A stretch of DNA of 64,000 nucleotides from a virus. Made by a program: the position numbers and the translations under genes. Positions within the stretch are counted from its first letter, which is position 1. Each line of letters opens with the position of its first letter. Of the stretch, positions 3,685 to 53,912 are shown piece by piece. Below the pieces are notes generated by a model. That model searched no databases, was not told the origin of the DNA, and saw nothing but the letters and a program-made list of their open reading frames with translations. The stretch lies in the UHGV virus genome UHGV-0287696. One strand, given 5' to 3'.

Positions 3685-3713
3685 ATTTCAGATATATATT
3701 ACCTAGGTGAGAG
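3685..3713 (+). promoter_or_regulatory. conserved early-type promoter motif (TCAGATATATATTACCTAGGTGAGAG)
   Basis: One of five near-identical copies in the window, each 40-70 bp upstream of an RBS+ATG; TATATTAC core is what I recall as the phiKZ early promoter consensus. Confidence 0.55.
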
Positions 3714-3758
3714 TTTACGTAATACTCATTTATCGAATACCTAATTAGGAGTTATATC

Positions 3759-3902
3759 ATGATTTCTGTAAAACACAAAAAAGCTATCTTCGGTGTTGTT
3801 ATCGCTGTTGTTCTGGGTTGCCTGTATCTGGACATCGACAAAGGCTACGACACTTGCATCGACAACGGTAATTCCGTTGCACAGTGCACTGGTCGTGGTT
3901 AA
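3759..3902 (+). CDS. small membrane protein (47 aa), likely highly expressed early gene
   Basis: ATG at 3759 with RBS TAGGAG; MISVKHKKAIFGVVIAVVLGCLYLDIDKGYDTCIDNGNSVAQCTGRG; optimal-codon rich; below the 60-aa track cutoff; flanked by promoter motif and terminator. Confidence 0.5.
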   Translation: MISVKHKKAIFGVVIAVVLGCLYLDIDKGYDTCIDNGNSVAQCTGRG

Positions 3903-3907
3903 TGTAT

Positions 3908-3940
3908 AAGGCACCTTCGGGTGCCCTTAATTTTTTTATT
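3908..3940 (+). terminator. intrinsic terminator
   Basis: ggcacc-ttcg-ggtgcc hairpin followed by ttaattttttt. Confidence 0.65.
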
Positions 3941-3956
3941 AATTGGAGCATAAAAG

Positions 3957-4772
3957 ATGATTACCATTAAAGATTATTTTCCGCGTGGACTGAGCAATGA
4001 AAACTTCGTTCCAACTGAAGACATTGCCATCGTAACAGAGTCTAGTGATAAGTCTTTTAAACTCTACTTGAGTACGGCAGCAGGAAAATCCACTCTTATC
4101 CTTCGCGAACCTGAGGTGATAAGCATCTGCTCGTTTGGGGGCGGTGTAGAAGGAACGATTAATTGGTTGAAATCCAGAATGCATCGTTTGCTTATCGTGA
4201 ACACCGATCCTGTGATTCGTTTACAGCAATTGAAATCGTTGAATGAAGTTATCGTCGGATTATTGGAACATGAAACGTTTGGTAATGTTGCGATTGCGGA
4301 AGAGATTAAATCTGTAGAACTAATCGAGTGGAGTGATATCGAATACGAACGTGCTGCGTTATTCGCAATGTACGGTGACGATAATCCTGTTGTGTTTGCA
4401 CAAACATTAGATAACGTTACAGTAACAGCGCGCGTATTGTTTGGCTTACAGCGTGTTGAGTTTGAACTGAAACACGTTTATGTAAGTAATGCTCCAGAGA
4501 TGGTGGAAACGTTGACTCGTGCGTTCGCTTACCCGTTAGACGGAGAATGGGAACAGCAGATTAATGAAGCGTTAGGTGCGATGCTGTTCTTAGCAGGCAC
4601 ACTAAGGAAAGAAGAGAAATTAAAAGGTCGTGTCTATCCAGAATACGATTTTGTTTGTGAAGAATGTGGAGCACAGTATCAAATACGTGTTCCTTTAACC
4701 GGCCTGACAATCCCGAAAGCCAACGTGCAATGTAAGGAATGTGGCCATGTTCAATACGTAGCGACTAAATAA
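3957..4772 (+). CDS. hypothetical protein with C-terminal zinc-ribbon (CxxC...CxxC)
   Basis: 271-aa ORF, RBS GGAGCA upstream; C-terminus FVCEECGAQ...CKECGH. Confidence 0.55.
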   Translation: MITIKDYFPRGLSNENFVPTEDIAIVTESSDKSFKLYLSTAAGKSTLILREPEVISICSFGGGVEGTINWLKSRMHRLLIVNTDPVIRLQQLKSLNEVIVGLLEHETFGNVAIAEEIKSVELIEWSDIEYERAALFAMYGDDNPVVFAQTLDNVTVTARVLFGLQRVEFELKHVYVSNAPEMVETLTRAFAYPLDGEWEQQINEALGAMLFLAGTLRKEEKLKGRVYPEYDFVCEECGAQYQIRVPLTGLTIPKANVQCKECGHVQYVATK

Positions 4773-4776
4773 AAGC

Positions 4777-4822
4777 AACCCCTAATCCTTTTCGGGATTA
4801 GGGGTACACTTTATTTATTTTC
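4777..4822 (+). terminator. intrinsic terminator
   Basis: acccctaatcc-ttttc-gggattaggggt hairpin plus T-rich tract. Confidence 0.6.
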
Positions 4823-4848
4823 GCAAATTCAACATAGGGGATAAGTTC

Positions 4849-4977
4849 ATGAAACATGAACTGTTGTTTCGACGGTTAAACGAGTTGTCCGTAAAACAGC
4901 TCGAATTTCAACGAAGGGTTAGTGAAATAGCGCAACCAACGTTAACACAGCCCAAGAAACACCCAGTCGGTAGTTGA
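4849..4977 (+). CDS. small protein, putative degenerate member 0 of tandem paralog array
   Basis: 42-aa ORF with RBS AGGGG; KQLEFQRRVSEI resembles KQIQFNQRMDEY of the ORF at 5860; rare codons present. Confidence 0.3.
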   Translation: MKHELLFRRLNELSVKQLEFQRRVSEIAQPTLTQPKKHPVGS

Positions 4978-5026
4978 GAGGGGGTAACAACCTAAAGGGG
5001 GAATGCGCCAACACTCCCCATAGGCG

Positions 5027-5082
5027 CTTTATCTTTTCGAAAGAGAAGTTAAAGCAGTAGGGACTGCCTATACAGTCCCTAC
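5027..5082 (+). promoter_or_regulatory. conserved palindromic leader element plus hairpin (array unit 1)
   Basis: cttttcgaaagagaagttaaagca followed by hairpin gtagggactg...cagtccctac; same architecture at 5345 and 5742. Confidence 0.45.
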
Positions 5083-5138
5083 TTGTCGCTATTACCGGTA
5101 CGTAATAGCTTAATCCCCAACTCGTGTGAGGTTTTAAC

Positions 5139-5309
5139 ATGACTAACAACAATACACGTATCTTTACTTCTATCTCAAACAGCTATGCAGAACAAGCGAG
5201 GTTTAATGAACGACTAAGAGAGGTTCAACAACTCGGATTAAATAAAAGGCTTAAAGCCTCTAACAATCCTCGAGTACAGATCTTCACCGAAAGGAGAAGT
5301 AACTACTAA
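5139..5309 (+). CDS. small basic protein, tandem paralog 1 (56 aa)
   Basis: RBS GAGGT; MTNNNTRIFTSISNSYAEQARFNERLREVQQLGLNKRLKASNNPRVQIFTERRSNY; shares QLG(L/M)(N/D)KRLK...QIFTE(R/K)RS with paralog 2. Confidence 0.45.
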   Translation: MTNNNTRIFTSISNSYAEQARFNERLREVQQLGLNKRLKASNNPRVQIFTERRSNY

Positions 5310-5316
5310 ATAAAAT

Positions 5317-5341
5317 AAAGGGGTGCTGTCACACCCCTTTT
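5317..5341 (+). terminator. hairpin (weak terminator) after paralog 1
   Basis: aaaggggtgctgtcacacccctttt. Confidence 0.4.
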
Positions 5342-5344
5342 CTT

Positions 5345-5403
5345 AGCTTTAACTTTTCGAAAAGAGAAGTTAAAGCAGGGTACGCTGGTGCTACAGCGTA
5401 CCC
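5345..5403 (+). promoter_or_regulatory. conserved palindromic leader element plus hairpin (array unit 2)
   Basis: agctttaacttttcgaaaagagaagttaaagca (arms ctttaactt / aagttaaag) followed by hairpin gggtacgctg...cagcgtaccc. Confidence 0.45.
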
Positions 5404-5465
5404 TTTACAGCACCACCACGTTTCCGTAGTGGATTTCTTTAATCACCCTACAAAGAGGGCTTACC

Positions 5466-5639
5466 ATGAACAATGGTTACTACTTTACTGACAAAATGCT
5501 TGCAGAACAGAGTGCAGCAAAGACCAATTTACAGCAACGTATCTACAAGTATAGTCAGCTCGGCATGGATAAACGGTTAAAACCGTCTACCAACCGTTTC
5601 ACGCAGATATTCACCGAAAAGAGGAGTGAACACTACTAA
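5466..5639 (+). CDS. small basic protein, tandem paralog 2 (57 aa)
   Basis: RBS AGAGGG; MNNGYYFTDKMLAEQSAAKTNLQQRIYKYSQLGMDKRLKPSTNRFTQIFTEKRSEHY; differences from paralog 1 are partly synonymous. Confidence 0.45.
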   Translation: MNNGYYFTDKMLAEQSAAKTNLQQRIYKYSQLGMDKRLKPSTNRFTQIFTEKRSEHY

Positions 5640-5712
5640 CAAATAAAGAGGAGGCGTGTCAGCGCCTCCCCTCCTCGTACAGTAACCTGCCGAGATGGTG
5701 GTCGTAGGTATA

Positions 5713-5741
5713 AAAAAGGGTGCTTCACCACCCCTTTTCTT
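5713..5741 (+). terminator. hairpin (weak terminator) after paralog 2
   Basis: aaaaagggtgcttcaccaccccttttc. Confidence 0.4.
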
Positions 5742-5799
5742 AGCTTTAACTTTTCCGAAGAGAAGTTAAAGCAGCAGAGACTGTTCCGCCAGTCTCTGC
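5742..5799 (+). promoter_or_regulatory. conserved palindromic leader element plus hairpin (array unit 3)
   Basis: agctttaacttttccgaagagaagttaaagca followed by hairpin gcagagactg...cagtctctgc. Confidence 0.45.
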
Positions 5800-5830
5800 T
5801 GTACGGTGTCAACACATAAAGTTGTTGACG

Positions 5831-5840
5831 TTTTTACAAC
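5831..5840 (+). promoter_or_regulatory. TTTTTACAAC motif (candidate second promoter class)
   Basis: Exact 10-mer also at 32079 and 37613, each 20-45 bp upstream of a start codon. Confidence 0.25.
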
Positions 5841-5859
5841 ATTACGAAAGGTAATGAAA

Positions 5860-6021
5860 ATGAACGAATATCAAATACAGATGTTCAATACCGCGATGCG
5901 AAATCGTGAGAAACAAATTCAGTTTAACCAACGCATGGACGAATATGTTCGTCTCGGCCTCGTTGCGGCACCGAAAACGGTTAACAACCACAATGTTCAC
6001 CAACCACCTGTAAGGAGATAA
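5860..6021 (+). CDS. small basic protein, tandem paralog 3 (53 aa)
   Basis: ATG at 5860 after GAAAGG; MNEYQIQMFNTAMRNREKQIQFNQRMDEYVRLGLVAAPKTVNNHNVHQPPVRR; track start 5806 is an upstream GTG. Confidence 0.4.
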   Translation: MNEYQIQMFNTAMRNREKQIQFNQRMDEYVRLGLVAAPKTVNNHNVHQPPVRR

Positions 6022-6163
6022 GTTACTAACTAATAAAGGGGGTGTTGCTACCACCCCCTGCTTAGTTCGGTAGTTGTTTTCCATTCATAATTAATAGTCT
6101 TCTGTTTTTTTTTGCTTTCCGAGACGCATAAGGGGTTATAGGGGGAGCCGAAGCTCCCCAGAC

Positions 6164-7726
6164 TCAAAAGAGTTCGTCACCCATGCCGCCGGTAAATACG
6201 TTAATCGACGAGGCTGTTACAGTTTCTTCTTTATCACAATCCCATGGCAAAATGCCAACATCACGGAAAGGTATTACAGTATAATGATAAGCTTCTTTGG
6301 TATCAATAATTGTACGGTGTTTACCGCGTTGTACTTCTAAATAGCTGTGTCCGCTGACGACACGTTTGTTAAAATACATCTCACCGTCAGCTTCGTTGTC
6401 TAAGCTAGAGCAGTTGTCGTAAAGACCACGACCAGGTAAGCTCTTACAGAAACTTGCTGGGTCGAGTGCTTTTAATTTTTTGCCTTCTGGTGAGATTTGG
6501 TGTGGTGCTAAGAGGAAACCACGATTACGTACCACTTGGATGTTTCGCGCGATACGATAAATTTCTTTAATGTCACTACCCGCAATACCGTTACCGTGCC
6601 CTGCTTTGCTGATAGTACCGAAATAGTCTCCGCGTATTCCAGCTACATGATAACCTCGACGTTTTAAATCTAAAATCAAATCATTCAAATAGTGAATTTT
6701 AAAATCGGAGTTTGTGTGTTTTTGGAAAATATACTCCCAACCGTTTGCCCGCATTTTACTACAGAGGTAATCTGACATTTGTGCATTGTGTAGCGCTTTT
6801 TCTTCGTCAGTTGCCGTTTCAGGTGCAACCATTACCGGAGCTGTACCTTCAAAGTGTCCGTAAAGTGCTTGATACGCGTAAGCCAAGTTAACATCTAATT
6901 CGTTTTCTAAACTTAAATCCAGAATAACCGGTTGTAAGTCACCTTTAACATTTGCCATCACCTTTTCTGGGGTGTTGAATACAGGAATGCTAATAGAGAG
7001 CAATAAACTGAATAATGACTTACAGTTAAAAGGAAGAGCAGGCATTAGCCAGAGTTCTTCGGTGATCCCTTTGTTACAACCGAGCATTTGGTTAATTGCT
7101 TTCCAGCCCGTACGTAACCCGTTCCCTGCTGCTTTCTTACTGATAGAGTCGAATACATGTACGAAGGGTGCTTTATTGTCAGTAATCAATTCCCCTACCA
7201 GAGAAGGAATCTTATTATGAGAGCGTTCACTGAACGTGGATAAGGTATCCTTAAGGTCGTTGAGCGCCGTTTGTAAATCAACACGCGTTTCAGTGCCGTT
7301 CAGTGCGCCTAACGTACGACCCAATTTTTGTTTCAGTTGTACGCCTTGAATAGCTTGACGTAACTGAAAGTAGTATTGTGCTACTTGGCGATTAAGATGC
7401 TCGATGCGTGCTTCTGGTTCTTCTGGAATATCATCTTCCAGGAATTTGGTAATCGTATCGTATAGAGGACGTATTTGCGTAGTGGCCAGTTTCAAACGTT
7501 TCATGACGTTTGTGTGGTCGTAAGGCATACCGCCGTCTATGATGGATGTGATGATATCCTTGATTTCGACGAGGGCGGCACGTTCGTCACCTTCTTCTGC
7601 GTAATCAGGAAGCTTAGCCTCTAACAGCACTTTTCTTATGATGTCGTGGTCCTTTTCAGGATCGGTCAGAAGACTTTCAGCGTATAATGTGGCTAAGGCG
7701 GTTATCAACATCATTTTGTTATTCAT
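6164..7726 (-). CDS. hypothetical protein (520 aa)
   Basis: Long - strand ORF; RBS AAGGA upstream of ATG at 7726; no motif recognised. Confidence 0.6.
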   Translation of the reverse strand: MNNKMMLITALATLYAESLLTDPEKDHDIIRKVLLEAKLPDYAEEGDERAALVEIKDIITSIIDGGMPYDHTNVMKRLKLATTQIRPLYDTITKFLEDDIPEEPEARIEHLNRQVAQYYFQLRQAIQGVQLKQKLGRTLGALNGTETRVDLQTALNDLKDTLSTFSERSHNKIPSLVGELITDNKAPFVHVFDSISKKAAGNGLRTGWKAINQMLGCNKGITEELWLMPALPFNCKSLFSLLLSISIPVFNTPEKVMANVKGDLQPVILDLSLENELDVNLAYAYQALYGHFEGTAPVMVAPETATDEEKALHNAQMSDYLCSKMRANGWEYIFQKHTNSDFKIHYLNDLILDLKRRGYHVAGIRGDYFGTISKAGHGNGIAGSDIKEIYRIARNIQVVRNRGFLLAPHQISPEGKKLKALDPASFCKSLPGRGLYDNCSSLDNEADGEMYFNKRVVSGHSYLEVQRGKHRTIIDTKEAYHYTVIPFRDVGILPWDCDKEETVTASSINVFTGGMGDELF

Positions 7727-7739
7727 GGAGCATCCTTAA

Positions 7740-8264: not shown

Positions 8265-8276
8265 GGTATTAAACAA

Positions 8277-10571
8277 ATGAAAGATACCCGAATCTCTAAT
8301 CTGGAGAAACTCGTACAAGCTGGTAACTCGCTGGTACAAAGCGTCATTAGTAACAACAGTGCTGGCGAAATGTGGAACACCATCGTTGCTGGTGAGTCTG
8401 TACGTAGCAACACGAAAGTTTTTGGTACCCTGCGTGACGATGCTGCACAGCACTACGCAAACGCGTTTGCTGGCGGTAAGAAAATGTCCCACGCTGCGGA
8501 AGTTGCTTCTGCAATGATTCTGGGTGCTGCTGGCCACGGTATGGACCTGCAAGAAAAAGTAGCGCAAGAATACGCTAAGCCAGAATTCCATAGCCGTTTT
8601 AACCTGGACGTTGCGATTCCTGGTTCCCAAGCTGGTAACGGCGACTGGGGCAAAGAGCGTATGGTTGTTGCTCAGGAATACTACACCAACAAAGATTACG
8701 ACAAAAACCTGGGTCTGACCTGGACGCTGAACGTACGTGCTCTGGAAACTCAGTCTCGTTTCGCTGAGACTCTGTTCCCGACCATCACCGTTGACACCAA
8801 CGATGTTGGTATTACCGTACGTACCAAAGTGACCACCGTTTCTCGTGGTGTCATGCACGCGTTACTGACCAAAGACGTTGTTGAAGATCATCGTCGTAAC
8901 CTGCACGAAGCGCTGACCGACCACACCGTTCTCCAGGACGAAGCGATCAACATCGTTCCTTACGTAATGGAAACCGGTGAAAACGCTGAATACTTCGTAA
9001 GCGAAGAACTGGTACCGAACGAATCTGTTCGTCTGGGCCGCGTACCTCCGTACCCGACTAACTACCTGAGCTTTGCTAAAGACACTCTGAACCTGTTCCA
9101 GCTGTCTGCGCATCCGGGTATCGTTCAGGAAGGTTACGACGAAACTGATGAAATCGCACCGGGTTGTGCTCTGGGCAGCCTGCTGATTTCCGTACGTAAA
9201 CCGACCGAAGAAGCGAAAGCAGGTAAATTCATCAAACTGCACGTTCGTGACATGCAGTTCGCAACCTTCCAGCGTCCTGCTGAAGGTGATGGCCGTGAGC
9301 TGGTACTGCAATTCCGTCGTACTGCGTTCTCTCTGAATGCGAAAACCACCGACTGGAAAGGCGAAGCTATTCCGGCACTGAAATCACTGGAACAGAACTC
9401 CTACACCCTGCGTTATGTGATCACCATCAACATGTCTCTGTTCACTACCGGTCAGTTCGGTGGTAAAGTTGACATCGCTGGTCACAAACTGGAAATCGAA
9501 GGTCTGTACGACGCTACTGGTAACAAAGTTGATACCAAATCTGGTACCGGCAAAGTTATCCTGGACGGTCTGAAACTTGAACTGATGGGCTGGCGCTTCG
9601 ATGGTACTCGTACCAACGAAAACCGTCGTACCCAGGGTCTGCTGCTTGACCCAATCTGGGAACAAGAAAACTACAAACTGCAATACGGTTCTCCGATCCT
9701 GACCAAGTCTCCGGTTGGCGTTGAATACGACGATACCGAACGTCTGGACGACCTGATTTCCGCAGTTAACATCCGTAACGAACAGCTGGCTATCACTCAG
9801 ACGCTGTCTTACACCGAAGCGGTACGTAACGCTGCTGCAAGCATGATCACTCCGTGGGACAAACCGGCCATTCGTGGTCTGGGCCGTCACTGGGTTGCTC
9901 CGTGGTTCAAAGAGTCTGACTACAACGTTGATGAAGTTGTACAGTCCCTGGATACCAAAGATGCACTGATCAACGCTCGTCAGGGCCTGGTACAGCGTAT
10001 CGGTAATCAGGTAACTCAGGCTATCCAGGAATCTCGCTTCATTCCTGCGCTGCGTCTGTACACTGCCGATCCGGACATTCTGCCGAAAGTTGTTATTGCA
10101 ACTGACGAACCGACTGCATCTATGCTGCTGCTGGTACAGGGCGACCAACGTCTGCTGGGCGATCGCTACGAATACGAAGTGATCACCACCAACGATGACC
10201 GCTGGCGTATCTACAACGCAGCTGACGGTTCCTGGACTCGTCGTCTGCAATGGTTCCTGAAAGTTCCGACTGCGGACGATGGTTCCTACAACGTGCTGAA
10301 CTGGGGTAACCACTTCTGGTCTCCGATCATGGTTACCAACATCAACATTCAGCGTAACGGTTCTACCTCTAAAGAGCTGGCCGTACAGCCGCGTAACGCG
10401 CACATCTGTCACTGCCCGATCACCGGTCTGATCTGGGTTAAAGGCATCACCAAACTGGTTGAAGAAAAACTGGCTTACAATGTTTCTGTTGAACAGAACG
10501 GTCAGAAACAAACCGAAGGTGGTGTAGCAGGTAACGTTGCTGGCGAAGGCAAAGCTGCTGCTGGTAAGTAA
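8277..10571 (+). CDS. major virion structural protein, most likely major capsid protein (tail sheath not excluded)
   Basis: 764-aa ORF with strongly optimised codons (ctg, cgt, ggt, aaa), strong downstream terminator; size matches the ~750-aa capsid proteins of phiKZ-like phages; no search run. Confidence 0.5.
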   Translation: MKDTRISNLEKLVQAGNSLVQSVISNNSAGEMWNTIVAGESVRSNTKVFGTLRDDAAQHYANAFAGGKKMSHAAEVASAMILGAAGHGMDLQEKVAQEYAKPEFHSRFNLDVAIPGSQAGNGDWGKERMVVAQEYYTNKDYDKNLGLTWTLNVRALETQSRFAETLFPTITVDTNDVGITVRTKVTTVSRGVMHALLTKDVVEDHRRNLHEALTDHTVLQDEAINIVPYVMETGENAEYFVSEELVPNESVRLGRVPPYPTNYLSFAKDTLNLFQLSAHPGIVQEGYDETDEIAPGCALGSLLISVRKPTEEAKAGKFIKLHVRDMQFATFQRPAEGDGRELVLQFRRTAFSLNAKTTDWKGEAIPALKSLEQNSYTLRYVITINMSLFTTGQFGGKVDIAGHKLEIEGLYDATGNKVDTKSGTGKVILDGLKLELMGWRFDGTRTNENRRTQGLLLDPIWEQENYKLQYGSPILTKSPVGVEYDDTERLDDLISAVNIRNEQLAITQTLSYTEAVRNAAASMITPWDKPAIRGLGRHWVAPWFKESDYNVDEVVQSLDTKDALINARQGLVQRIGNQVTQAIQESRFIPALRLYTADPDILPKVVIATDEPTASMLLLVQGDQRLLGDRYEYEVITTNDDRWRIYNAADGSWTRRLQWFLKVPTADDGSYNVLNWGNHFWSPIMVTNINIQRNGSTSKELAVQPRNAHICHCPITGLIWVKGITKLVEEKLAYNVSVEQNGQKQTEGGVAGNVAGEGKAAAGK

Positions 10572-10584
10572 TCTTGCTTAAAAA

Positions 10585-10630
10585 GAGTCTAAGCCCTTCG
10601 GGGCTTAGACCTTTTATTTTTTTTTTCTTT
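10585..10630 (+). terminator. intrinsic terminator
   Basis: gtctaagccc-ttcg-gggcttagac hairpin followed by a ~19-nt T-rich tract. Confidence 0.75.
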
Positions 10631-10754
10631 CTATTATTTTTTGGATAGATATTATTAAAGGGAGACGGCCAGTTGGTTTTAAAGGAGTATGTATGGAAAA
10701 AATACAGTTTAAACTAAAGATATGTGTCATCATTAAAATTTAGCTTGGGTTCCC

Positions 10755-11765: not shown

Positions 11766-11775
11766 GGAGCATGGC

Positions 11776-13551
11776 GTGTTTAAAGATGCAATCAAAAAGC
11801 TTAAAGAGAGTGGTAAAATAGTACCCTTTAACCGTGCGATTGCGGAAGGAGTCGGTTATACACAAGCCAAAGATGGTATTCACGATCGTGTACATCGTAT
11901 CTTGAAACGTGAGCTAGATTACCATCCTGTAGAGAACCCTCGTGTTCCTGAAGGCTTGGCCGTGTTGGGTGTTCGTTTAATGTCGCCGTTCGAAACTTTT
12001 ATCTATAAGCTGTCTCGTTCAGAGAGCAGCAGGATGGATAAACGTCGTGGGGTGATGTCTATCGCGAATACCGATGCGTATATGGTCATGTCGTCGTTCC
12101 GTATTCCTGGAGACTCAAGACCAATCTCAAGACCGATTAACTTGCCTTTCATTCGTCGTGGTGGGTTGATGAACTATTACGGAACAACGTATCATGTTGC
12201 ACCTGTTATTCATCAGCCGGGTATCTGTCGTGAGCACGGTGGGGTGTTTGTTAATTTTGACTTTAAACGTAAAGCGTCATTAAAATTCTGTAAGCACCCG
12301 GTACGGATTTTAGTGAACGGGAAGAAAGAAGAATTGTTCTTGCCCGGAACAAACAATTTGTTTAAAGCCAAAAACGCCACACATCCTGACACGGACGAAA
12401 AGCCGTTAATGTACTGGCTATTCGGACGTTATGGATTTAAGGAAGCCATCAAACGTTATACTGGCGTGGATGTGGAGATATACCCTGCATTCAAAGTACC
12501 TGAAATCGATCTCGATAAAAAAGTAGTAATCAGTTCAGGTGAGCCTAAACATAATCGGACGATTATGTACGTAGTGACGGTTCCTGCAGAGGCTTTACCA
12601 AATCTCGATAAAGCGGGATGGGATCAAAACGAGCACTTATTACTCGTGGCGATTTCTGCATTCTTTAAAGCAGCGCACTATTATTGCGGAAAGCAAGCGA
12701 TTAAAAACGGCAACGTTGTTCCTTTACCGCCGTTGTTTACCGCGATTAACGAACTTGCAATGGAGGACGATGTTGTAAACCTGAATTCCTCCGCAATTTG
12801 GCGGGAGATTTTGGGGAGAAGTATTGTTGGACTTAAACCGTCCGATATTGAACTGGCACACAGCATGACGAAACACTATACGGAGTGCGAACGCTACGTT
12901 AACTCAACATTCCGTGGTGAGTTAATGATGTCAGATCCCGATATCCCGGACGATATGGATATGTTTGATTTCTTCTGGTACGCGACGAAGTTGATGGTGA
13001 GAACACGCCTTACGAAACAAGGCGATATTCCGTCAATGTATGGAAAACGTCTGACCGTAACAGATTACCTGTTATTGGGTGAGCGTGGCTTTACGCCTAC
13101 CATCGCTGCGATTCGTTTCCACTTGGGACAAACGGAGAATAGAACACCGGAGTCTTGTGCGAACATGATACGCAGTGCGTTGAATAAAGACATTGTAACT
13201 AGCCTGGTATTACGCAACATTACCGGCAATGGCGGTGTAAGTTATTTCAACGCTTCTACCGAGTCTATGGTGCTGGGGGTTTCAACCCATGCTATCAGCC
13301 AGACAGAAACAGAATCTAAACGTAACAGCAAGGGCGGTAAGACGGTTAACCTTAATGACCGGACAAAACATGCCTCTGCATCTCATCTGGAATGTGGTAA
13401 CGTGTATTACATTCCGAAATCATCACCGTTTAAATCGGGTATTCTCAATCCGTATATGAAGACGAACACCCAACTGGTGATGGTACGTAATCCAAAACTC
13501 AACGAGTTGATCCAAGCAACCGAAGAAGACATTGCGAAGATTGGCCGTTAA
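11776..13551 (+). CDS. hypothetical protein (591 aa)
   Basis: GTG start with AAGGAG 6 nt upstream. Confidence 0.55.
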   Translation: MFKDAIKKLKESGKIVPFNRAIAEGVGYTQAKDGIHDRVHRILKRELDYHPVENPRVPEGLAVLGVRLMSPFETFIYKLSRSESSRMDKRRGVMSIANTDAYMVMSSFRIPGDSRPISRPINLPFIRRGGLMNYYGTTYHVAPVIHQPGICREHGGVFVNFDFKRKASLKFCKHPVRILVNGKKEELFLPGTNNLFKAKNATHPDTDEKPLMYWLFGRYGFKEAIKRYTGVDVEIYPAFKVPEIDLDKKVVISSGEPKHNRTIMYVVTVPAEALPNLDKAGWDQNEHLLLVAISAFFKAAHYYCGKQAIKNGNVVPLPPLFTAINELAMEDDVVNLNSSAIWREILGRSIVGLKPSDIELAHSMTKHYTECERYVNSTFRGELMMSDPDIPDDMDMFDFFWYATKLMVRTRLTKQGDIPSMYGKRLTVTDYLLLGERGFTPTIAAIRFHLGQTENRTPESCANMIRSALNKDIVTSLVLRNITGNGGVSYFNASTESMVLGVSTHAISQTETESKRNSKGGKTVNLNDRTKHASASHLECGNVYYIPKSSPFKSGILNPYMKTNTQLVMVRNPKLNELIQATEEDIAKIGR

Positions 13552-13590
13552 CGAATTAAATTATAGAAAAGACGTAACAGGAGTATAATA

Positions 13591-15243: not shown

Positions 15244-15287
15244 GGGGCTTCGTGCCCCCTAATCTATAGACACCACAGGACAGTATC

Positions 15288-15536: not shown

Positions 15537-15545
15537 TCGCCCCAC

Positions 15546-15986: not shown

Positions 15987-15988
15987 AT

Positions 15989-30870: not shown

Positions 30871-30909
30871 AGGTACCACCGTTGGGTGGTACCTATATTT
30901 TATTTTTTC
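30871..30909 (+). terminator. intrinsic terminator
   Basis: aggtaccacc-gttg-ggtggtacct followed by atattttatttttt. Confidence 0.7.
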
Positions 30910-30937
30910 TCAGATATATTTTACTTAGGTGAGAGTT
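30909..30937 (+). promoter_or_regulatory. conserved early-type promoter motif (variant CTCAGATATATTTTACTTAGGTGAGAG)
   Basis: Copy 2 of the motif, immediately after a terminator and ~50 bp upstream of the HTH gene. Confidence 0.5.
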
Positions 30938-30984
30938 ACAACTAACTCTTTACACCGACTTGTTAACCTAAAGGAGTATTTACA

Positions 30985-31344
30985 ATGGCTTACAATCACA
31001 ATTCCATCGTTCTGGCAAAACGTAAATTCGGTCTTCACTTGTCTTACGTAATTCGTCATTTGACCACAAAAGACATTACTCAGCGTGAACTTGCCCAGCT
31101 TGCGAAAGTTTCACAACCTGTTATCTCGTCTATTAAGAACGATCACTCAGAACGTTTAAGCTTGCCGATTATGATGAAAGTTGCTGATGCGATTCGTCTG
31201 AAATACCAGATTAGTTTTAATTCCGTTAAGGGTCGTTGCTCAGTAACCGTTCACGTAGAGTCCGCGTTGGACTACGTTGCAAACACGTCCATTAAACGCA
31301 CCACGAAGAATGTGTGTTTTATCACTAACGCCGCAACGCACTAA
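30985..31344 (+). CDS. helix-turn-helix DNA-binding protein (putative early regulator)
   Basis: ITQRELAQLAKVSQPVISSIKN fits the XRE-type HTH pattern; first gene after a promoter motif; RBS AAAGGAG. Confidence 0.45.
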   Translation: MAYNHNSIVLAKRKFGLHLSYVIRHLTTKDITQRELAQLAKVSQPVISSIKNDHSERLSLPIMMKVADAIRLKYQISFNSVKGRCSVTVHVESALDYVANTSIKRTTKNVCFITNAATH

Positions 31345-31365
31345 TCAACCTGAAGGAGTATTATC

Positions 31366-32037
31366 ATGCCACCGAAAATTGGTAAAACTGTAATTGAAGA
31401 AACTGTAAAGAACGAGACTAAAGTTAACGAAGCACAACCGCCTGTGAAAGTTGAGCTTTTACCCTGCGTTAATGAAATACTCGGGGTGAAATTCTTAACT
31501 TTTAGCCCGTATACTGACCTGGTTTTCGAACTTTATCAAGACCAGCCTTTCAACTTATTCACACTTGTCTGCACTTATAATGGTGATGTTTTGGCGGTTG
31601 CACCTGGTCTCAATAGAGACAAATTACTTACAGGCACGGTTATTACTGAAATTCTTCTGCGGTTAATGCATAAGTTTGAAGGGCCTGAACTTGACAAAAT
31701 CGCTGTTAAGTTAGCGGACTTGCTAATCAATGCCGCCACCTGGTTGTGTTTTAACCCTTCTATCTATTTCCATTTCAGTACAAATATTCTTCACGCCGTA
31801 ACAGACGACGGTAAAAAGTATCGCATCTTAATTAAGGGTGGGGTGCAACAACCTTTGTTCTCTAGACAAAACTGCCATATTAAGTTTTCGCCTGACTTGG
31901 TAGAAGTTTACGGCCAGCGAGCAGCGGCTGGCCACTACGACGCCCATCTCAGATTTTTCAATTACCTGTATGAAAAATTAGGGAAAGCTGGCTTGACACC
32001 CAATCTTGCTTTTACAAACTCTGCCCCTTCTGCATGA
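31366..32037 (+). CDS. hypothetical protein
   Basis: 223-aa ORF with RBS GAAGGAG. Confidence 0.5.
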   Translation: MPPKIGKTVIEETVKNETKVNEAQPPVKVELLPCVNEILGVKFLTFSPYTDLVFELYQDQPFNLFTLVCTYNGDVLAVAPGLNRDKLLTGTVITEILLRLMHKFEGPELDKIAVKLADLLINAATWLCFNPSIYFHFSTNILHAVTDDGKKYRILIKGGVQQPLFSRQNCHIKFSPDLVEVYGQRAAAGHYDAHLRFFNYLYEKLGKAGLTPNLAFTNSAPSA

Positions 32038-32049: not shown

Positions 32050-32083
32050 GGGGAACTTCGGTTCCCCTTTCTTTTTTGTTTTT
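32050..32083 (+). terminator. intrinsic terminator
   Basis: ggggaac-ttcg-gttcccc followed by tttcttttttgttttt. Confidence 0.7.
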
Positions 32084-35486: not shown

Positions 35487-35525
35487 CCCTCTCTCCGTTT
35501 GGAGAGAGGGAGTATTTATTTTTAC
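35487..35525 (+). terminator. intrinsic terminator
   Basis: ccctctctcc-gttt-ggagagaggg followed by T-run; near-identical hairpin at 36551. Confidence 0.7.
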
Positions 35526-36201: not shown

Positions 36202-36218
36202 TAATTGTCTAAAAAATT

Positions 36219-36257
36219 TAAGATATATTTCATCTATGTGAGAATTCTCACTTAACT
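36219..36257 (+). promoter_or_regulatory. conserved early-type promoter motif (variant) with downstream palindrome GTGAGAATTCTCAC
   Basis: TTAAGATATATTTCATCTATGTGAGAATTCTCACTTAAC; copy 3, upstream of ATG 36275. Confidence 0.45.
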
Positions 36258-36274
36258 AAATGGAGTAATCTAAA

Positions 36275-36544
36275 ATGGGTAAGATTTATATTGTTGAAAA
36301 ACGTGCAGGTAATGTTCTTTCCTATTACGAAGAAGGTAAACCTGAAAAGGTTAAAACACTCAAACTCGACGGCTTCAATGTGAAGAGTTTACGTAAGGGT
36401 GTGAAGATTACCTTTAAAGGTCTGATTCGCGCAGGTAACTTGCAGATTGTTAAGGACGACGGCACGATGGTTGCGTTAGCACCGGCCAGTGCTGCGAAAA
36501 CGACAGCAGGTTGTGGCTGCTACGGTAGCAGTCGTAAGATTTAA
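36275..36544 (+). CDS. hypothetical early protein (89 aa)
   Basis: Strong RBS context; follows the promoter motif; followed by terminator. Confidence 0.5.
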   Translation: MGKIYIVEKRAGNVLSYYEEGKPEKVKTLKLDGFNVKSLRKGVKITFKGLIRAGNLQIVKDDGTMVALAPASAAKTTAGCGCYGSSRKI

Positions 36545-36550: not shown

Positions 36551-36590
36551 CCCCTCTCTCCGTCTGGAGAGAGGGTACTTTTATTTTTCT
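36551..36590 (+). terminator. intrinsic terminator
   Basis: cccctctctcc-gtct-ggagagaggg followed by tacttttatttttctt. Confidence 0.7.
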
Positions 36591-46870: not shown

Positions 46871-46872
46871 AA

Positions 46873-47376: not shown

Positions 47377-47463
47377 TTATTTTTCAAGTGGAAGCGCTTG
47401 AAATCGTAATCGGGGGGATGTTTTAAAAGACTTTCTACGTCCCCCTAAACTTAAAGGTGTGTT

Positions 47464-50018: not shown

Positions 50019-50024
50019 ATTTTA

Positions 50025-50069
50025 GGTAGTAGGGGCTAAGCCCCTACTACCTTTCTTTTTTTATTTTTT
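50025..50069 (+). terminator. intrinsic terminator
   Basis: ggtagtaggggc-taa-gcccctactacc followed by a ~18-nt T-rich tract. Confidence 0.75.
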
Positions 50070-50098
50070 CTCAGATATATATTACCTAGAGGAGAGCG
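50070..50098 (+). promoter_or_regulatory. conserved early-type promoter motif (CTCAGATATATATTACCTAGAGGAGAG)
   Basis: Copy 4, immediately after a terminator and 46 bp upstream of ATG 50144. Confidence 0.55.
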
Positions 50099-50143
50099 AA
50101 ATTTACGTTCACTCCATTAGTTATAGCCGAAAAGGAGGATTAG

Positions 50144-50995
50144 ATGCATCACCCGTATTATCTCCCGCACATTCTAGCAAATAGGGACCCCGCTTATTAT
50201 TACGGACAAACAGAAGGATCTTTTAATCGACTTTACATTCGTGAATTTAATACCGATGAAATGACGGACGACCAGTATCTGGAGTATCTAAAAGACCTTT
50301 ACGGTTTTTCAAAATCGAATAAAGATGGCTTTGGACGCCTCTCAGTCATTAGCGATGGTGAATATCGTCATTTAGCTAAGCCTGTTACGTACCCTATTAT
50401 TACACGCGCTTATACATCAGATAGGCAATATCTTGCTGAACTAAAAATTCCTCTACGGATAGACGGGCCCCAAATTAGCTGTATGGAGGTAGAAATTCAA
50501 CCGATTGCTGAAGACTATATTGAGGACTACTTCAAGAAAGCTAAAGACGTACTCGACGAGGGTTTAAGTTACTCTGAAGAAGGTACGATTTGTCTTCTCT
50601 CGCTACTCTCGAAGACTTATGTCACAGCAAATTTCCGTGTCTCTGATTCCAGTAACTACAATACACTTACTCCCTCTAAGACAAAACCGGTCTATTGGGA
50701 CGATCGGTTAGTCGACAGACACCGTTGGCTTACTATCTTAGATAAAGTAAAATTCGAACCCCCTAAACACACCGAAGACAATTTTACTTTATTACACAAC
50801 TTCGAACCGATCTATATCCCGACACATTTTGAACAAGCCTTACGTCATCGGTTGAAGTATGTGTTGGAATTACGGTACGGGAAGATAAATGGGCTAACCT
50901 GTTCTGGTGAATTGGGTGAAGAAGAACGCGAGAAAATAAAAATCGTGTTTGATAAGTTGGTTGAAGATTACATTAAGAAGGAAGGGCAATTATGA
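50144..50995 (+). CDS. hypothetical early protein
   Basis: 283-aa ORF, strong RBS AAAGGAGGA. Confidence 0.5.
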   Translation: MHHPYYLPHILANRDPAYYYGQTEGSFNRLYIREFNTDEMTDDQYLEYLKDLYGFSKSNKDGFGRLSVISDGEYRHLAKPVTYPIITRAYTSDRQYLAELKIPLRIDGPQISCMEVEIQPIAEDYIEDYFKKAKDVLDEGLSYSEEGTICLLSLLSKTYVTANFRVSDSSNYNTLTPSKTKPVYWDDRLVDRHRWLTILDKVKFEPPKHTEDNFTLLHNFEPIYIPTHFEQALRHRLKYVLELRYGKINGLTCSGELGEEEREKIKIVFDKLVEDYIKKEGQL

Positions 50996-51435
50996 AACCA
51001 AATACTACTAATGGCATTATGCTACTTTGTGATTCTGAAACGTTAGCAAACCGTATTCGTGGTTTGATGCAAGTACGTTGGCAGCAAAAAGTTCTCGTCG
51101 ACTATGCTGCCCCATTTGTTCACATTACCTGGTTGCCAGAAGCCAGCGATTTCAAAGAACGTATAACCACAAGAAGAATTAAAGAATGGTTATCGGCGAT
51201 CATTAATAAACAGATTACCGTCATCAATTTTCAACTTTTCGGTACCGCTGAAGAACATGAAATCTTGAAACAGTGTTTAAGAGCGTTGGCTGTTTCCTTT
51301 TCTGTTCGTGGTAGCTGCTATACGGCTTACTTTATCGGTTCGCTTGAACTGTTTAAGAATACGCTAATGCTTCAGCTAAAAGATGACTACAAACTTTTAG
51401 ATAAAATCGATTTCGAATTCCCAGGTATGATTTAA
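50992..51435 (+). CDS. hypothetical protein
   Basis: 147-aa ORF with ATGA overlap. Confidence 0.45.
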   Translation: MKPNTTNGIMLLCDSETLANRIRGLMQVRWQQKVLVDYAAPFVHITWLPEASDFKERITTRRIKEWLSAIINKQITVINFQLFGTAEEHEILKQCLRALAVSFSVRGSCYTAYFIGSLELFKNTLMLQLKDDYKLLDKIDFEFPGMI

Positions 51436-51481
51436 GGAACCGTAGCTTAATTACCCCACCATTTACCTAAAGGAGCATTAA

Positions 51482-51997
51482 ATGTCAGTAAATATTAACA
51501 TGAATCTTTATACTAAACGTGAACGTCAGATCCTGGCGAATCAACCTGGCGTTACGACCATCGACGGTAAGCCTATTGACCGTTTAAAAGTTATCGTTGC
51601 GCGAAATTGCCATGAACGCGATTGGGATATCACCTACTTCCGTTGCTGTTCGGTCGCAAACGCGCTTACCCAACTCTCCAACTATCACCCAGGACCGCTA
51701 TTAAAAGACTGGGTTTGGTTAGTCCCTAAAACTCCCTCAGCAATTGAGTATCCCGCTGGGTTAGTCTATATTCGACCTGTCGCTTACCCAGAACGTCTGA
51801 AAGAGTATCTTGAAGTTATCTGGAACCGTCCTCGTAAAGAGCTGGCGACGATTATTAATTTACTGCAACAGATCGATATCCCCGGTGTTTTGAATTTGAA
51901 ACTCACGTCTCGCGATATTAACCAGGCTTACTGGGAACTGGAGTGGACAGAACCGAAATTCGAAAACACTAACCGTATTTTCTTGCACCGGGGGTAA
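51482..51997 (+). CDS. hypothetical protein
   Basis: 171-aa ORF, RBS AAAGGAG. Confidence 0.45.
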   Translation: MSVNINMNLYTKRERQILANQPGVTTIDGKPIDRLKVIVARNCHERDWDITYFRCCSVANALTQLSNYHPGPLLKDWVWLVPKTPSAIEYPAGLVYIRPVAYPERLKEYLEVIWNRPRKELATIINLLQQIDIPGVLNLKLTSRDINQAYWELEWTEPKFENTNRIFLHRG

Positions 51998-51999
51998 AA

Positions 52000-52281
52000 A
52001 TGTTAGATTGGTTGTTGGGATTAATTAACTCACGTCAACAGGAGCTTTATAAAGAAAACACGCGATTACGGCAGGAGCTTAGTAACAATCGTCAAACCAA
52101 ACGACAATTAATTCGGATGGTAAAACAACAGGCGCGTTGTATACGTGATATCGATTATCAGTATCACCGTCTGAATACCTTAGACCCAACAACAAAAGCT
52201 TTAGGTAGTACGATTGGACACGCACGTAAAGTCAGTCACGATGCGTTAGTTCGAATCGATACAGTAGAAGAGAAACTGTGA
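52000..52281 (+). CDS. hypothetical protein (93 aa)
   Basis: ORF 3 nt after the upstream stop. Confidence 0.4.
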   Translation: MLDWLLGLINSRQQELYKENTRLRQELSNNRQTKRQLIRMVKQQARCIRDIDYQYHRLNTLDPTTKALGSTIGHARKVSHDALVRIDTVEEKL

Positions 52282-52324
52282 TATAACCCCTCTCAGGAAC
52301 TCCTGAGAGGGAGGAGAAAGAAAG

Positions 52325-52633
52325 ATGCACGGTATTTTGATTATTCTTAAAGCCAAACTATACAAAATTGCCTTTTCTTTGTTTTACGGCCGTATTGTAG
52401 AAGAGGTTGTATCGGAATCCGAACCCCATGAAGAAACAGTGATTCGTTTTGGAAAGGAATACACAGTCATGGTTCGAGATGTTGTGATAGACGTTTACTC
52501 TACCGGGGGAATCTTAAAAGGAAAACCTAAGCGTAGATTGTACGGTAAAAGACTTCCTTACATGAGAGATCATTTAATTCTGGGCTCGTTACAAGAATTT
52601 TTTAATTTAAGAGATAATGTAAGAAGTAAATGA
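52325..52633 (+). CDS. hypothetical protein
   Basis: 102-aa ORF, RBS GGGAGGAGAAAG. Confidence 0.4.
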   Translation: MHGILIILKAKLYKIAFSLFYGRIVEEVVSESEPHEETVIRFGKEYTVMVRDVVIDVYSTGGILKGKPKRRLYGKRLPYMRDHLILGSLQEFFNLRDNVRSK

Positions 52634-52636
52634 AAT

Positions 52637-53002
52637 ATGCTGAACAAAATTAAATATTGGTTAAACGATTCGTTTAAAACCTGGGCTTGTGGTGCGAATG
52701 TCAAAACAGTAGTTAAATCGGGCGACTGGTATACAGAGATTATTACGTTAGCAAACGGAGGATTGCAAAACATACAAGTTCGTAACGTTGTTGTTAGAAT
52801 AGGGCGCGAGGGAGGAGCAATCTTCAACTCTGAATACTATCTAGTTTCTGCCTTGGAATTGAAAAACGGCCCGATTCTATTTAATGCTACAGCACAGAAT
52901 CTTTACGACACGATGGTTAAGTTTGGTGAAAGAGTAAAACGTTTAAATGATTCGCTCAGTAAGTTTATTAAAGAAACTGAACGAACCACGGTGGAGATTT
53001 AA
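52637..53002 (+). CDS. hypothetical protein
   Basis: 121-aa ORF. Confidence 0.4.
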   Translation: MLNKIKYWLNDSFKTWACGANVKTVVKSGDWYTEIITLANGGLQNIQVRNVVVRIGREGGAIFNSEYYLVSALELKNGPILFNATAQNLYDTMVKFGERVKRLNDSLSKFIKETERTTVEI

Positions 53003-53005
53003 AAG

Positions 53006-53314
53006 ATGGAAAACAAAATCACAAACACATCGGTACCTGAGAACATCGTCAACTATATTCTCCGCGGTGGGTTGTTAGAAGACAATAAAGAAACGTGCGA
53101 TAAACTCGTTTCTCAACTACTGCCTATTCGTTCAGAATACTGCGAAATCGTTATCTTAGGTTCCGAGTATTGCGTACGCTCTTACTGCCGTCGTTTCGAA
53201 GCCTTACGCGTACCTCGTACGTTAGGCGGTGTGATCTTGCTGATTTCGTCTTTTCAAGACGCTCATGTGCGTGTGGCGACCTGGATTGCCAAAGGAGGCG
53301 ATAGTGGTTTTTAA
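53006..53314 (+). CDS. hypothetical protein
   Basis: 102-aa ORF. Confidence 0.4.
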   Translation: MENKITNTSVPENIVNYILRGGLLEDNKETCDKLVSQLLPIRSEYCEIVILGSEYCVRSYCRRFEALRVPRTLGGVILLISSFQDAHVRVATWIAKGGDSGF

Positions 53315-53591
53315 TTTATTTAAACGTAAGGAATGTCCTGTCTGCGAAACCAACGATAAAATTATCTCTACGCAAGATGAGCTAATAAAACAACAAGATA
53401 AGATGCTCACTGAAATGGGCGAACTTTATTTTAAACTTTGTGCTATTACCGAACTGATTAGTGAAGGTAAGTTATCGAAAGATGGTGGGTTAGAGTTGGT
53501 CAAGAAGGCAACGATTCACTGTCGTCCAGAAGTAGAAAAATATAAACTTGAAGTGAAACGTGAACTATGGGAGGTTATTAATGAAGCGTGA
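53304..53591 (+). CDS. hypothetical protein with CxxC motif
   Basis: GTG 53304 with AAAGGAGG 5 nt upstream (track start 53265 lies inside the upstream gene); KECPVCETN. Confidence 0.35.
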   Translation: MVFNLFKRKECPVCETNDKIISTQDELIKQQDKMLTEMGELYFKLCAITELISEGKLSKDGGLELVKKATIHCRPEVEKYKLEVKRELWEVINEA

Positions 53592-53862
53592 AACAGTTGT
53601 ATTTCGTAGTAATGGTGATGTGGTTTTGTATCGTGGTAAGAAACGTATTCGTACGTTAGAATACCGAGAAGCAAAACGTTTCGTTGAAGAGTGTGCCTGG
53701 TTAATGCATTACGAAGGGAACTATCGTGCCATCTTAGAAGCGCCGCGTTTAGAACGTGCAGTTGCGCAGATGGCAATAGGTAATCCTAAGAACTGTTACC
53801 TGGCACGTAAGCCAAAATACCTACAACGTGTCTCGCTAGGCAGTTTTATTGCGGGATTTTAA
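53581..53862 (+). CDS. hypothetical protein
   Basis: ATG 53581 with GGGAGG upstream (track start 53560 is an alternative codon). Confidence 0.4.
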   Translation: MKRETVVFRSNGDVVLYRGKKRIRTLEYREAKRFVEECAWLMHYEGNYRAILEAPRLERAVAQMAIGNPKNCYLARKPKYLQRVSLGSFIAGF

Positions 53863-53873
53863 TAAAAATAATT

Positions 53874-53912
53874 TCAGATATATATTACTTAGGTGAGAGT
53901 ACAAAAGCTCTC
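53874..53912 (+). promoter_or_regulatory. conserved early-type promoter motif with downstream palindrome (GTGAGAGTACAAAAGCTCTCAC)
   Basis: TTCAGATATATATTACTTAGGTGAGAG; copy 5, 44 bp upstream of ATG 53944. Confidence 0.55.

Follow-up and report, generated by a model that had tools for sequence, protein, structure and literature searches.

We found that a 64,000-nucleotide (nt) stretch of viral DNA from UHGV virus genome UHGV-0287696 (the window) carries five copies of a real repeated element, the class-1 motif, which is not a product of chance. Comparison with published promoters supports this motif as the local form of the early promoter that a virion RNA polymerase (RNAP) would read in phages of the phiKZ type. 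The inverted repeat that follows it is a covarying stem-loop, conserved by pairing and not as a fixed sequence. We think it likely that the class-1 sites are phiKZ-like early promoters read by a multisubunit RNAP packaged in the virion, with a stem-loop at transcript position +1 that would protect the 5' end of the mRNA. The promoter itself belongs to a well-described type. The covarying +1 hairpin and a split of the promoters into two classes are modest new details, not a new system.

The class-1 motif and its match to phiKZ-type early promoters

When up to three mismatches to YTCAGATATATATTACYTAGGTGAGAG were allowed, the window had four matches, all on the + strand, and 100 dinucleotide-preserving shuffles had none (Table 1). 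The sequence-only reading, an earlier description of this DNA, had reported five + strand copies; these stand as four near-perfect copies and a degenerate one at 36218. Its coordinates for 30909 and 50070 were correct, and the other three were 1-2 nt off (3685 for 3687, 36219 for 36218, 53874 for 53873). The core that it gave, TATATTAC, is exact in three of the five copies and varies in two (TATTTTAC at 30909 and TATTTCAT at 36218). Because TATATTAC alone, as an 8-mer, is not over-represented in the window (3 found versus 2.3 expected), the signal is carried by the long motif. The copy at 50070 has AGG in place of GTG.

A covariance model of the motif plus the hairpin, run with filters off over both strands of the whole window, returned exactly these five sites (E 4e-14 to 0.046), and the next matches had E >= 0.2. 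The scores were 63.1 bits for 30909, 51.6 bits (E 3e-11) for 3687, 46.9 bits for 53873 and 26.2 bits (E 9e-5) for 50070; site 36218 had the E-value of 0.046. All five sites are intergenic and co-oriented with the downstream genes. A Shine-Dalgarno sequence and ATG follow 30-49 nt after the 27-mer in five of five copies, in agreement with the earlier description. The same description had placed the copies just after terminators. This was found at 30909 and 50070, but the terminator at 3687 is 132 nt away, and the terminator scan called none immediately upstream of 36218 or 53873.

Early promoters of this type have been described in several phages, those of phiKZ being dependent on the virion RNAP (Ceyssens 2014, Wicke 2021, Putzeys 2024). 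The phiKZ core is published as TATATTAC, the predicted 201phi2-1 early promoter as TTAWTAVAA_HYWTTTRARR_BTATATTACDWHDGTG, and the predicted OBP and N1M2 early promoters as ...TTTCARRYAKATATTATYWAAGTG, ending ...ATATTATYWAAGTG (PMC7058600 Table 2). In every jumbo phage that encodes RNAP, an AT-rich element of ~10 nt, centered near -10, lies upstream of early operons; it is the early promoter consensus wherever transcripts have been profiled, and it has been attributed to the virion RNAP (PMC7598289). Primer extension, dRNA-seq (differential RNA sequencing) and ONT-cappable-seq support 28-32 of these promoters in phiKZ, and in 201phi2-1 the same motif lies ~10 bp upstream of start sites. The window motif, (A-rich)TTTCAGATATATATTACYTAGGTG, fits the published 201phi2-1 and OBP/N1M2 forms position by position through GTG, the matching part of the 201phi2-1 form being TTTRARR_BTATATTACDWHDGTG.

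We scanned both strands of the window with a scoring matrix built solely from 18 phiKZ sites, which were selected by pattern from 200 kb of the phiKZ genome (consensus ATTnAAAnnnATTTAAAAnnTATATTACAAATnTGA). The five class-1 sites took ranks 1-5, with scores of 34.4, 29.5, 18.3, 10.6 and 9.2; site 53873 was first (34.4), 3687 second (29.5) and 36218 fourth. The mean maximum in shuffled sequence was 6.0, and one shuffle reached 25.6. The phiKZ promoters share the ~35-nt layout of an ATTnAAA block, ATTT(G/C)AGAT, TATATTAC, N4 and NTG, and the core of the phiKZ site at 51715 (ATTTCAGATTTATATTACTAAGGTG) is nearly identical to that of the window motif. They are also intergenic, co-oriented and upstream of small genes of unknown function. 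Unlike in phiKZ, CAGATA is fixed 5' of the core in the window clade, and so is TAGGTGAGAG on its 3' side. The phiKZ-like early consensus that the sequence-only reading had named agrees with the published tables, and the comparison that it proposed with phiKZ, 201phi2-1 and SPN3US gave the same layout and motif. From this match we infer the early timing, exact start site, rifampicin resistance and responsible polymerase of the class-1 sites. The label immediate-early, which had been attached to the downstream genes, draws a distinction beyond the reach of sequence. The study that PMC7598289 lists as its reference 18 has probably predicted a consensus for this clade by bioinformatics.

The transcription start would best be placed at the last G of GTG. 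In published descriptions, the T-rich block of phiKZ early promoters lies upstream of -19, and positions -2 and -31 are fixed in 201phi2-1 and variable in phiKZ. If the G of NTG is counted as +1, ATTT spans -24 to -21 in the phiKZ alignment, the variable base that precedes TG is -2 and that of ATTnAAA is -31. The start was chosen because the T-rich block, the element ~10 bp upstream and the variability at -2 and -31 all fit. Position -9, the third position named as variable in phiKZ, misfits: at that place, every one of the pattern-selected phiKZ sites has a T.

The source of the window is, by its gene content, a phiKZ-like jumbo phage. It belongs to the enterobacterial Chimalliviridae, as a member that is unsequenced or uncultured. 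The open reading frame (ORF) at 8277-10571 (+) encodes a 764-amino acid (aa) phiKZ-type major capsid protein (phrog_3231, E 1e-280), which shares 80.8% aa identity with its counterpart in Erwinia phage Asesino (Erskinevirus asesino) and ~79% with those of EaH2, Seoulvirus SPN3US and relatives; both genera sit within Chimalliviridae. ORF 11776-13551 (+) encodes a homologue of PHIKZ123 (gp123), a subunit of the phiKZ non-virion RNAP (nvRNAP), with matches to chain E of PDB 7OGP, the solved phiKZ nvRNAP (E 8.8e-18), and to phrog_2943. Gene order in the window parallels Asesino from ~64 to 140 kb. The sole megablast match of 10 kb against 50,697 phage records was 132 nt of Asesino, so there is no close relative among the sequenced phages of that collection. 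The placement rests on these observations together, and the earlier suggestion of a phage in or near Chimalliviridae is borne out by the capsid identities and the PHIKZ123 homologue.

The motif is conserved in these relatives. In Asesino it occurs at 8 sites, all on the + strand and all intergenic just upstream of genes. An exact-pattern scan of IMG/VR gave 40 loci on ~12 contigs of 107-246 kb, including SPN3US and EaH2; the pattern stops at GTG and is uninformative on the hairpin region. The window site upstream of the helix-turn-helix (HTH) gene, at 30909, has an orthologue at Asesino 96795; the two 27-mers agree at 26 of 27 positions, although the HTH proteins are only 35% identical. The degenerate copy at 36218 has an equally degenerate counterpart at Asesino 101960, and the genes that follow the two copies are homologous (44% aa identity).

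A covarying stem-loop after the motif

Each class-1 site has an inverted repeat near the putative start (Table 1). As DNA, the arms are GAGAGTTT/AA-u-ACTCAT, interrupted, at 3687 and GAGAGTTA/TAACTCTT at 30909, and stem-loop 5 can be extended to GUGAGAGU/GCUCUCAC (53893-53914). RNA folding of site 36218 gives 3 bp if the start is G36240 (z -0.18) and 5 bp if it is 2 nt earlier; the counterpart at Asesino 101960 has its own hairpin, GAGGAAT/ATTCCTC. The repeat is where it had been reported, but the literal GTGAGAG...CTCTCAC of that report occurs only at 53873, and the stems vary. Because the z-scores of single folds run from strong to weak, the significance of the hairpin rests on comparative data and not on the window alone.

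We therefore compared 45 distinct sites. In 34 of them, the minimum-energy fold of the 35 nt from the last G of GTG, the putative and not a mapped transcript start, is a hairpin with that G first-paired. An uninterrupted stem starting 0-2 nt from this G had at least 5 bp in 76% of the sites and at least 6 bp in 62%. The corresponding values were 24% and 10% for 778 genomic GAGA[GT] positions, and 30% (maximum 47%) and 12% (maximum 24%) for 200 shuffles of the tails. All 8 paralogous sites in Asesino have a stem of at least 5 bp, with a probability of ~1e-5 from the 24% background. The Asesino site at 66942 has a 6-bp stem, GAGAGA/TCTCTC, that differs from window stem-loop 1; a relation by orthology is not assumed for this pair.

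The stems differ in sequence while pairing is kept. They include GAGAGTTA/TAACTCTT, GAGATTAC/GTAATCTC, GAGATTGC/GTAATCTT, GAGCATTGA/TCAATGCTT, GATAGA/TCTATC, GAGTGATG/TATCGCTT and GAGATGAG/CTTATCTC. Compensatory changes are seen between closely matching sites. Relative to window site 30909, related locus L038 has AGCGT/ACGCT for AGAGTT/AACTCT, with a near-identical leader 3' of the hairpin. The site matching 50070, at L025:3544, has GAGTG/CATTC for GAGCG/CGTTC, a C:G to U:A change between near-identical leaders. Relatives of stem-loop 5 in L025 and L034 have ACUCUC, which changes U.G to U:A.

In an alignment of 44 distinct sequences that was fitted to the structure and so leans towards it, 89.4% of cells were in standard pairs (75.0% mean in shuffles), 6 of 8 pairs had changes on both sides (3.2 in shuffles) and 42 cells had such changes (15.4 in shuffles). 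None of 500 shuffles reached any of these measures, and sliding the partners by 1-3 columns collapsed the signal. The stem count against controls, given above, is free of the bias of the fitted alignment. G.U pairs outnumbered A.C pairs by 44 to 6, an excess that favors an RNA structure over one in template-strand DNA. Without the first pair the counts were 14 to 6 (p = 0.12), and because this is not significant, action at the level of RNA rather than DNA is only suggested. What the comparisons show is covariation in the stem; that the hairpin acts as RNA, and what it does, we infer.

The hairpin is a feature of this clade. The 18 phiKZ sites were at background, with stems of at least 5 bp in 39% and a mean z of -0.3, compared to 76% and -2.0 in the clade. 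Because the phiKZ sites have no enrichment, the hairpin would be unneeded for virion-RNAP promoters generally. A leader hairpin at +1 was not found described in the literature searched, including a 2026 review, although absence there is no proof.

The leader segment between the hairpin and the Shine-Dalgarno sequence is also conserved (30951-30984, 36250-36262, 53912-53924 and many related loci). It contains CGACYNTTAAYCTAAAGGAG in many relatives, and CACTTAACTAAA is common to sites 36218 and 53873. TTAAC(T/C) in this leader bears a resemblance, and no more than that, to the 'epsilon' translational enhancer of T7 gene 10.

A second promoter class, a proposed mechanism and its alternatives

A variant of the motif precedes a different set of genes. 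In Asesino, this class 2 (GATAGATATTATC-N4-NTG, up to two mismatches) has 21 matches on the + strand and 2 on the - strand; the mean in shuffles, both strands, was 4.7. A few of the + strand matches are class-1 sites, the two classes being just two positions apart. The variant matches the OBP/N1M2 form, YAKATATTATY...GTG. The Asesino class-2 sites have shorter leaders that by inspection mostly lack a hairpin. They lie upstream of the gp39-gp40 operon (gp40 is a PHIKZ055 homologue), of gp51 and gp52 (PHIKZ071 and PHIKZ074 homologues) and of gp93-gp94, where gp94 is, by gene order and annotation, the counterpart of the window PHIKZ123 homologue. Class-2 sites thus precede all the nvRNAP subunit operons checked (L001:16338, 24557 and 29796; L002:23982 and 24901).

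The window has a single candidate class-2 site, at 10644, which follows the capsid-gene terminator and precedes gene 10755 and the nvRNAP gene (11776). It corresponds in position to Asesino 73982 and 74901. Alone it is weak, with a core mismatch, GGG for GTG, rank 6 with the phiKZ matrix and a score below the shuffle mean. It has no leader hairpin (z +0.44). After it, at 10693-10743, is a 16-aa ORF (MEKIQFKLKICVIIKI) where Asesino has the 269-aa gp92; the gene at this position looks to have been lost or replaced in the window phage. The gene sets are split, with class 1 serving small orphan genes with hairpin leaders and class 2 serving nvRNAP operons without a hairpin. In contrast to 201phi2-1, OBP, EL and N1M2, a single genome here has both forms of the core, each with a gene set of its own. 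The two-class split was not found described in the literature searched.

We propose the following mechanism. A multisubunit RNAP packaged in the virion would be injected with the DNA and would recognize an element of ~35 bp, with an A-rich block near -30, ATTT-CAGAT from ~-24 to -15 and the core TATATATTAC from ~-16 to -7. Four variable bases and GTG would follow the core, with transcription starting at the last G. Each promoter would drive a short unit of 1-9 small genes, mostly orphans and one a Cro-like HTH gene, usually bounded by a terminator. In the enterobacterial branch, made up of Erskinevirus, Seoulvirus and uncultured relatives, a stem-loop with the +1 G first-paired would form at once from the first 18-24 nt of the nascent transcript. 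This fold would bury the 5' end of early mRNA and so hinder RppH and RNase E in 5'-end-dependent decay. The virion enzyme would also express the class-2 nvRNAP genes.

When mRNA is degraded in E. coli, both RppH and the RNase E 5' sensor require unpaired 5' nucleotides, and stem-loops in the ompA and T7 gene 10 leaders stabilize their mRNAs. Because of these properties, protection is the most economical role for the hairpin, and by analogy it would most likely protect early mRNA from decay. Like ompA leader hp1 and the T7 gene 10 leader, the class-1 leaders have at the putative mRNA start a short stem-loop that leaves essentially no 5' nucleotide unpaired, and as in T7 gene 10 the stem-loop is directly downstream of a putative phage-polymerase promoter. 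Unlike in these leaders, the stems here are weaker and AU-rich, the start site is deduced and the stabilizing role would be one by analogy.

Several observations weigh against this proposal. Folded alone, the hairpins at 3687 (z -0.35) and 36218 (z -0.18) are not significant. The comparative sites include many orthologues and are not independent, and the lean of the covariation alignment, the G.U counts without the first pair and the background-level stems of phiKZ, all described above, belong here as well. The start may be ~2 nt from the G of GTG. The virion-RNAP genes fall outside the 64-kb window; the Asesino annotation has further RNAP beta-subunit genes, including gp262-gp263 adjoining structural genes, which may or may not encode virion subunits. 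For this clade, neither mapped transcript 5' ends nor a time course nor an experiment with rifampicin turned up in the literature searched.

If the assignment is right, it provides an early-gene map for an uncharacterized jumbo phage as well as for relatives, among them the genetic model SPN3US, and flags ~15 small orphan genes in the window as candidates for host takeover. It would also provide a compact, portable early promoter for engineering these phages, a use to which the phiKZ consensus has already been put. The stabilizing and sorting of early mRNAs are poorly understood in nucleus-forming phages, and the +1 hairpin and the two promoter classes are leads on how this might be done for transcripts of an injected polymerase.

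We considered several other explanations. The +1 stem-loop could be a required cis-signal specific to the virion-RNAP early transcripts of enterobacterial Chimalliviridae, which we regard as unlikely. Its role may then be in extrusion of mRNA from the early-infection vesicle, in recruitment of a phage or host factor for immediate translation or in promoter clearance by the virion RNAP. If this were true, there would be two early sub-programs, one of host-takeover genes under the hairpin-bearing class 1 and one of nvRNAP operons under the hairpin-less class 2.

It is quite improbable that the motif is an operator at which a phage DNA-binding protein, for example the HTH protein encoded at 30985, shuts off the early units, with the repeat as its dyad. 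The HTH gene is directly downstream of one copy and the repeat at 36238-36251 is a perfect DNA palindrome, but stem sequences vary between sites with pairing kept, which points to a folded single strand and not a sequence-specific dyad operator. In addition, the loops range from 3 to 12 nt and the invariant part of the motif is not palindromic. That invariant part may double as promoter and operator.

There is very little chance that the sites are middle or late promoters read by the non-virion RNAP. They are interspersed with structural genes, and their timing in this clade is a prediction from sequence comparison. However, late promoters in phiKZ have only TATG at the start, and its middle promoters carry, near -22 to -24, a weak element that is AT-rich or TACT and have nothing at -10, whereas the window motif has a conserved block at ~-10 and a GTG start and is matched by the phiKZ early matrix. 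None of the structural genes of the window is preceded by a class-1 motif, and the genes downstream of the motif are small orphans. The related class-2 variant precedes the Asesino nvRNAP operons, which are needed before nvRNAP exists.

We give similarly little weight to a hairpin that acts in DNA, in promoter recognition or melting. The virion RNAP of coliphage N4 recognizes a DNA hairpin, and N4 resembles the present case in having a virion-delivered polymerase, early genes and a small promoter-associated hairpin. Several of the stems here can be extended upstream of the putative +1 (53893, 36238), and the G.U excess loses significance without the first pair. The N4 hairpin, however, is upstream of +1, has a 3-nt loop and is read as DNA by a single-subunit enzyme, whereas the hairpin here is downstream of the core and has loops of 3-12 nt. 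At 44 to 6 for G.T over A.C, a template-strand hairpin would carry mismatches. The hairpin is dispensable in phiKZ, where promoters with the same core lack it, and the phiKZ-type virion enzyme is multisubunit and unrelated to that of N4. We rejected this reading on the position and loops of the hairpin.

Expression from host sigma-70 promoters, with TATATT as the -10 hexamer, is exceedingly improbable and was rejected on scan counts. TATATT resembles TATAAT, and the site at 53859-53886 scores 9/12 in a sigma-70 scan, but there is no conserved -35 element and just one of the five sites passes the lax scan. Sigma-70-like matches in three regions were at chance (9 versus 11.9, 12 versus 12.2 and 8 versus 8.1 expected). 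The ~35 nt of conservation, including CAGAT and TAGGTG, is superfluous for a sigma-70 promoter. The motif is common to phages of Erwinia, Salmonella and Pseudomonas, and it matches the promoter class of the rifampicin-resistant phiKZ infection.

A leader attenuator or terminator that aborts most transcripts at ~25 nt has next to no probability and was rejected on stem composition: the 3' arm runs into UUUU in many relatives (covariance-model consensus UCUUUUA) and short 5'-untranslated-region-derived RNAs from premature termination are reported in phiKZ and 201phi2-1, but the AU-rich stems have a weak fold of -2 to -9 kcal/mol, no U-run exceeds 3-4 nt and four of the five window copies lack one, and the terminator scan called none of the leader hairpins. 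A mobile repeat was also rejected, since only ~45 nt are conserved, always co-oriented with genes, and the flanks are unrelated.

Gene units, terminators and other features of the window

The coordinates of the promoters, stem-loops, putative early units and terminators are collected in Table 1. A Pfam scan of seven of the nine ORFs of unit 4 gave only a sub-threshold match to DUF3958, and the first two ORFs also had no PHROG match.

Table 1. Positions of promoter elements, leader stem-loops, putative early units and terminators in the window (E, z and mismatch values as obtained for each feature)
Feature	Positions	Strand	Basis and details
Class-1 promoter 1	3675..3709 (putative -34 to +1); 27-mer 3687-3713; putative +1 G 3709	+	0 mismatches
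Class-1 promoter 2	30897..30931; 27-mer 30909-30935; putative +1 G 30931	+	1 mismatch
Class-1 promoter 3, degenerate	36206..36240; 27-mer 36218-36244; putative +1 G 36240	+	21/27, matrix scan
Class-1 promoter 4	50058..50092; 27-mer 50070-50096; putative +1 G 50092	+	2 mismatches
Class-1 promoter 5	53861..53895; 27-mer 53873-53899; putative +1 G 53895	+	0 mismatches
Candidate class-2 promoter	10644..10662	+	GATAGATATTATT-AAAG-GGG; 1 mismatch to GATAGATATTATC; single window copy
Stem-loop 1	3709..3729	+	GAGAGUUU-ACGU-AA(u)ACUCAU, interrupted; covariance-model alignment; alone -2.7 kcal/mol, z -0.35
Stem-loop 2	30931..30950	+	GAGAGUUA-CAAC-UAACUCUU, 8 bp; -6.5 kcal/mol, z -4.35, 0/200 shuffles as good
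Perfect 14-bp palindrome	36238..36251	+	GTGAGAATTCTCAC; sequence; arms GTGAGAA/TTCTCAC
Stem-loop 4	50094..50110	+	GAGCG-AAAUUUA-CGUUC; -4.5 kcal/mol, z -1.96
Stem-loop 5	53895..53912	+	GAGAGU-ACAAAA-GCUCUC; -8.3 kcal/mol, z -4.18, 0/200 shuffles as good
Putative early unit 1, first gene	3759..3902	+	47-aa hydrophobic peptide; ORF list; phrog_8574, unknown function
Putative early unit 2	30985..32037	+	Cro/C1-type HTH protein (30985-31344) and 223-aa orphan; Pfam HTH_37, HTH_26, HTH_3; phrog_7126
Putative early unit 3	36275..36544	+	Single 89-aa gene; phrog_12339
Putative early unit 4	50144..53862	+	Nine consecutive small orphan ORFs up to next promoter; ORF list
Putative early unit 5	53944..54210	+	Single 88-aa orphan gene; ORF list
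Terminator upstream of promoter 1	3528-3555		132 nt upstream of 27-mer at 3687; terminator scan
Terminator-like hairpin after 3759-3902	3910-3925		Terminator scan
Intrinsic terminator upstream of promoter 2	30871..30894	+	15 nt upstream; 10-bp stem and T-run
Terminator closing unit 2	32050-32067		Terminator scan
Terminator closing unit 3	36552-36575		Terminator scan
Bidirectional intrinsic terminator upstream of promoter 4	50024..50052	both	18 nt upstream; 13-bp stem
Terminator closing unit 5	54233-54255		Terminator scan

Three hairpins (3528-3555, 4778-4805 and 50024-50052) scored as terminators on both strands, though the neighboring genes are all on the + strand. Two copies of one terminator with a 10-bp stem, CCCTCTCTCCGTYTGGAGAGAGGG, lie ~1 kb apart at 35487-35510 and 36552-36575, and the second closes the single-gene unit of promoter 36218. 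No tRNA genes were found in the window. The 132-nt megablast match (33410-33541, within ORF 33111-33926) has 81% nt identity to the DNA adenine methyltransferase gene of Asesino.

At 4780-6100, three or four paralogous ORFs of ~42-71 aa (4849, 5139, 5466, 5806) form a tandem array and share ..QLGL.KRLK..N...QIFTE.RS. The ORFs are separated by repeats of CTTAGCTTTAACTTTTCGAAAGAGAAGTTAAAGCAG, itself an inverted repeat, and by strong hairpins. A scan of 2500-6500 gave 21 terminator-like sites versus 3.7 expected, most of them within the array. At 42272-46870, a 1532-aa tail-fiber ORF matches many tail-fiber PHROGs repeatedly, with as many as 8 stretches for one family, and its C-terminus is like that of a T4 distal fiber; it probably encodes a mosaic receptor-binding protein.

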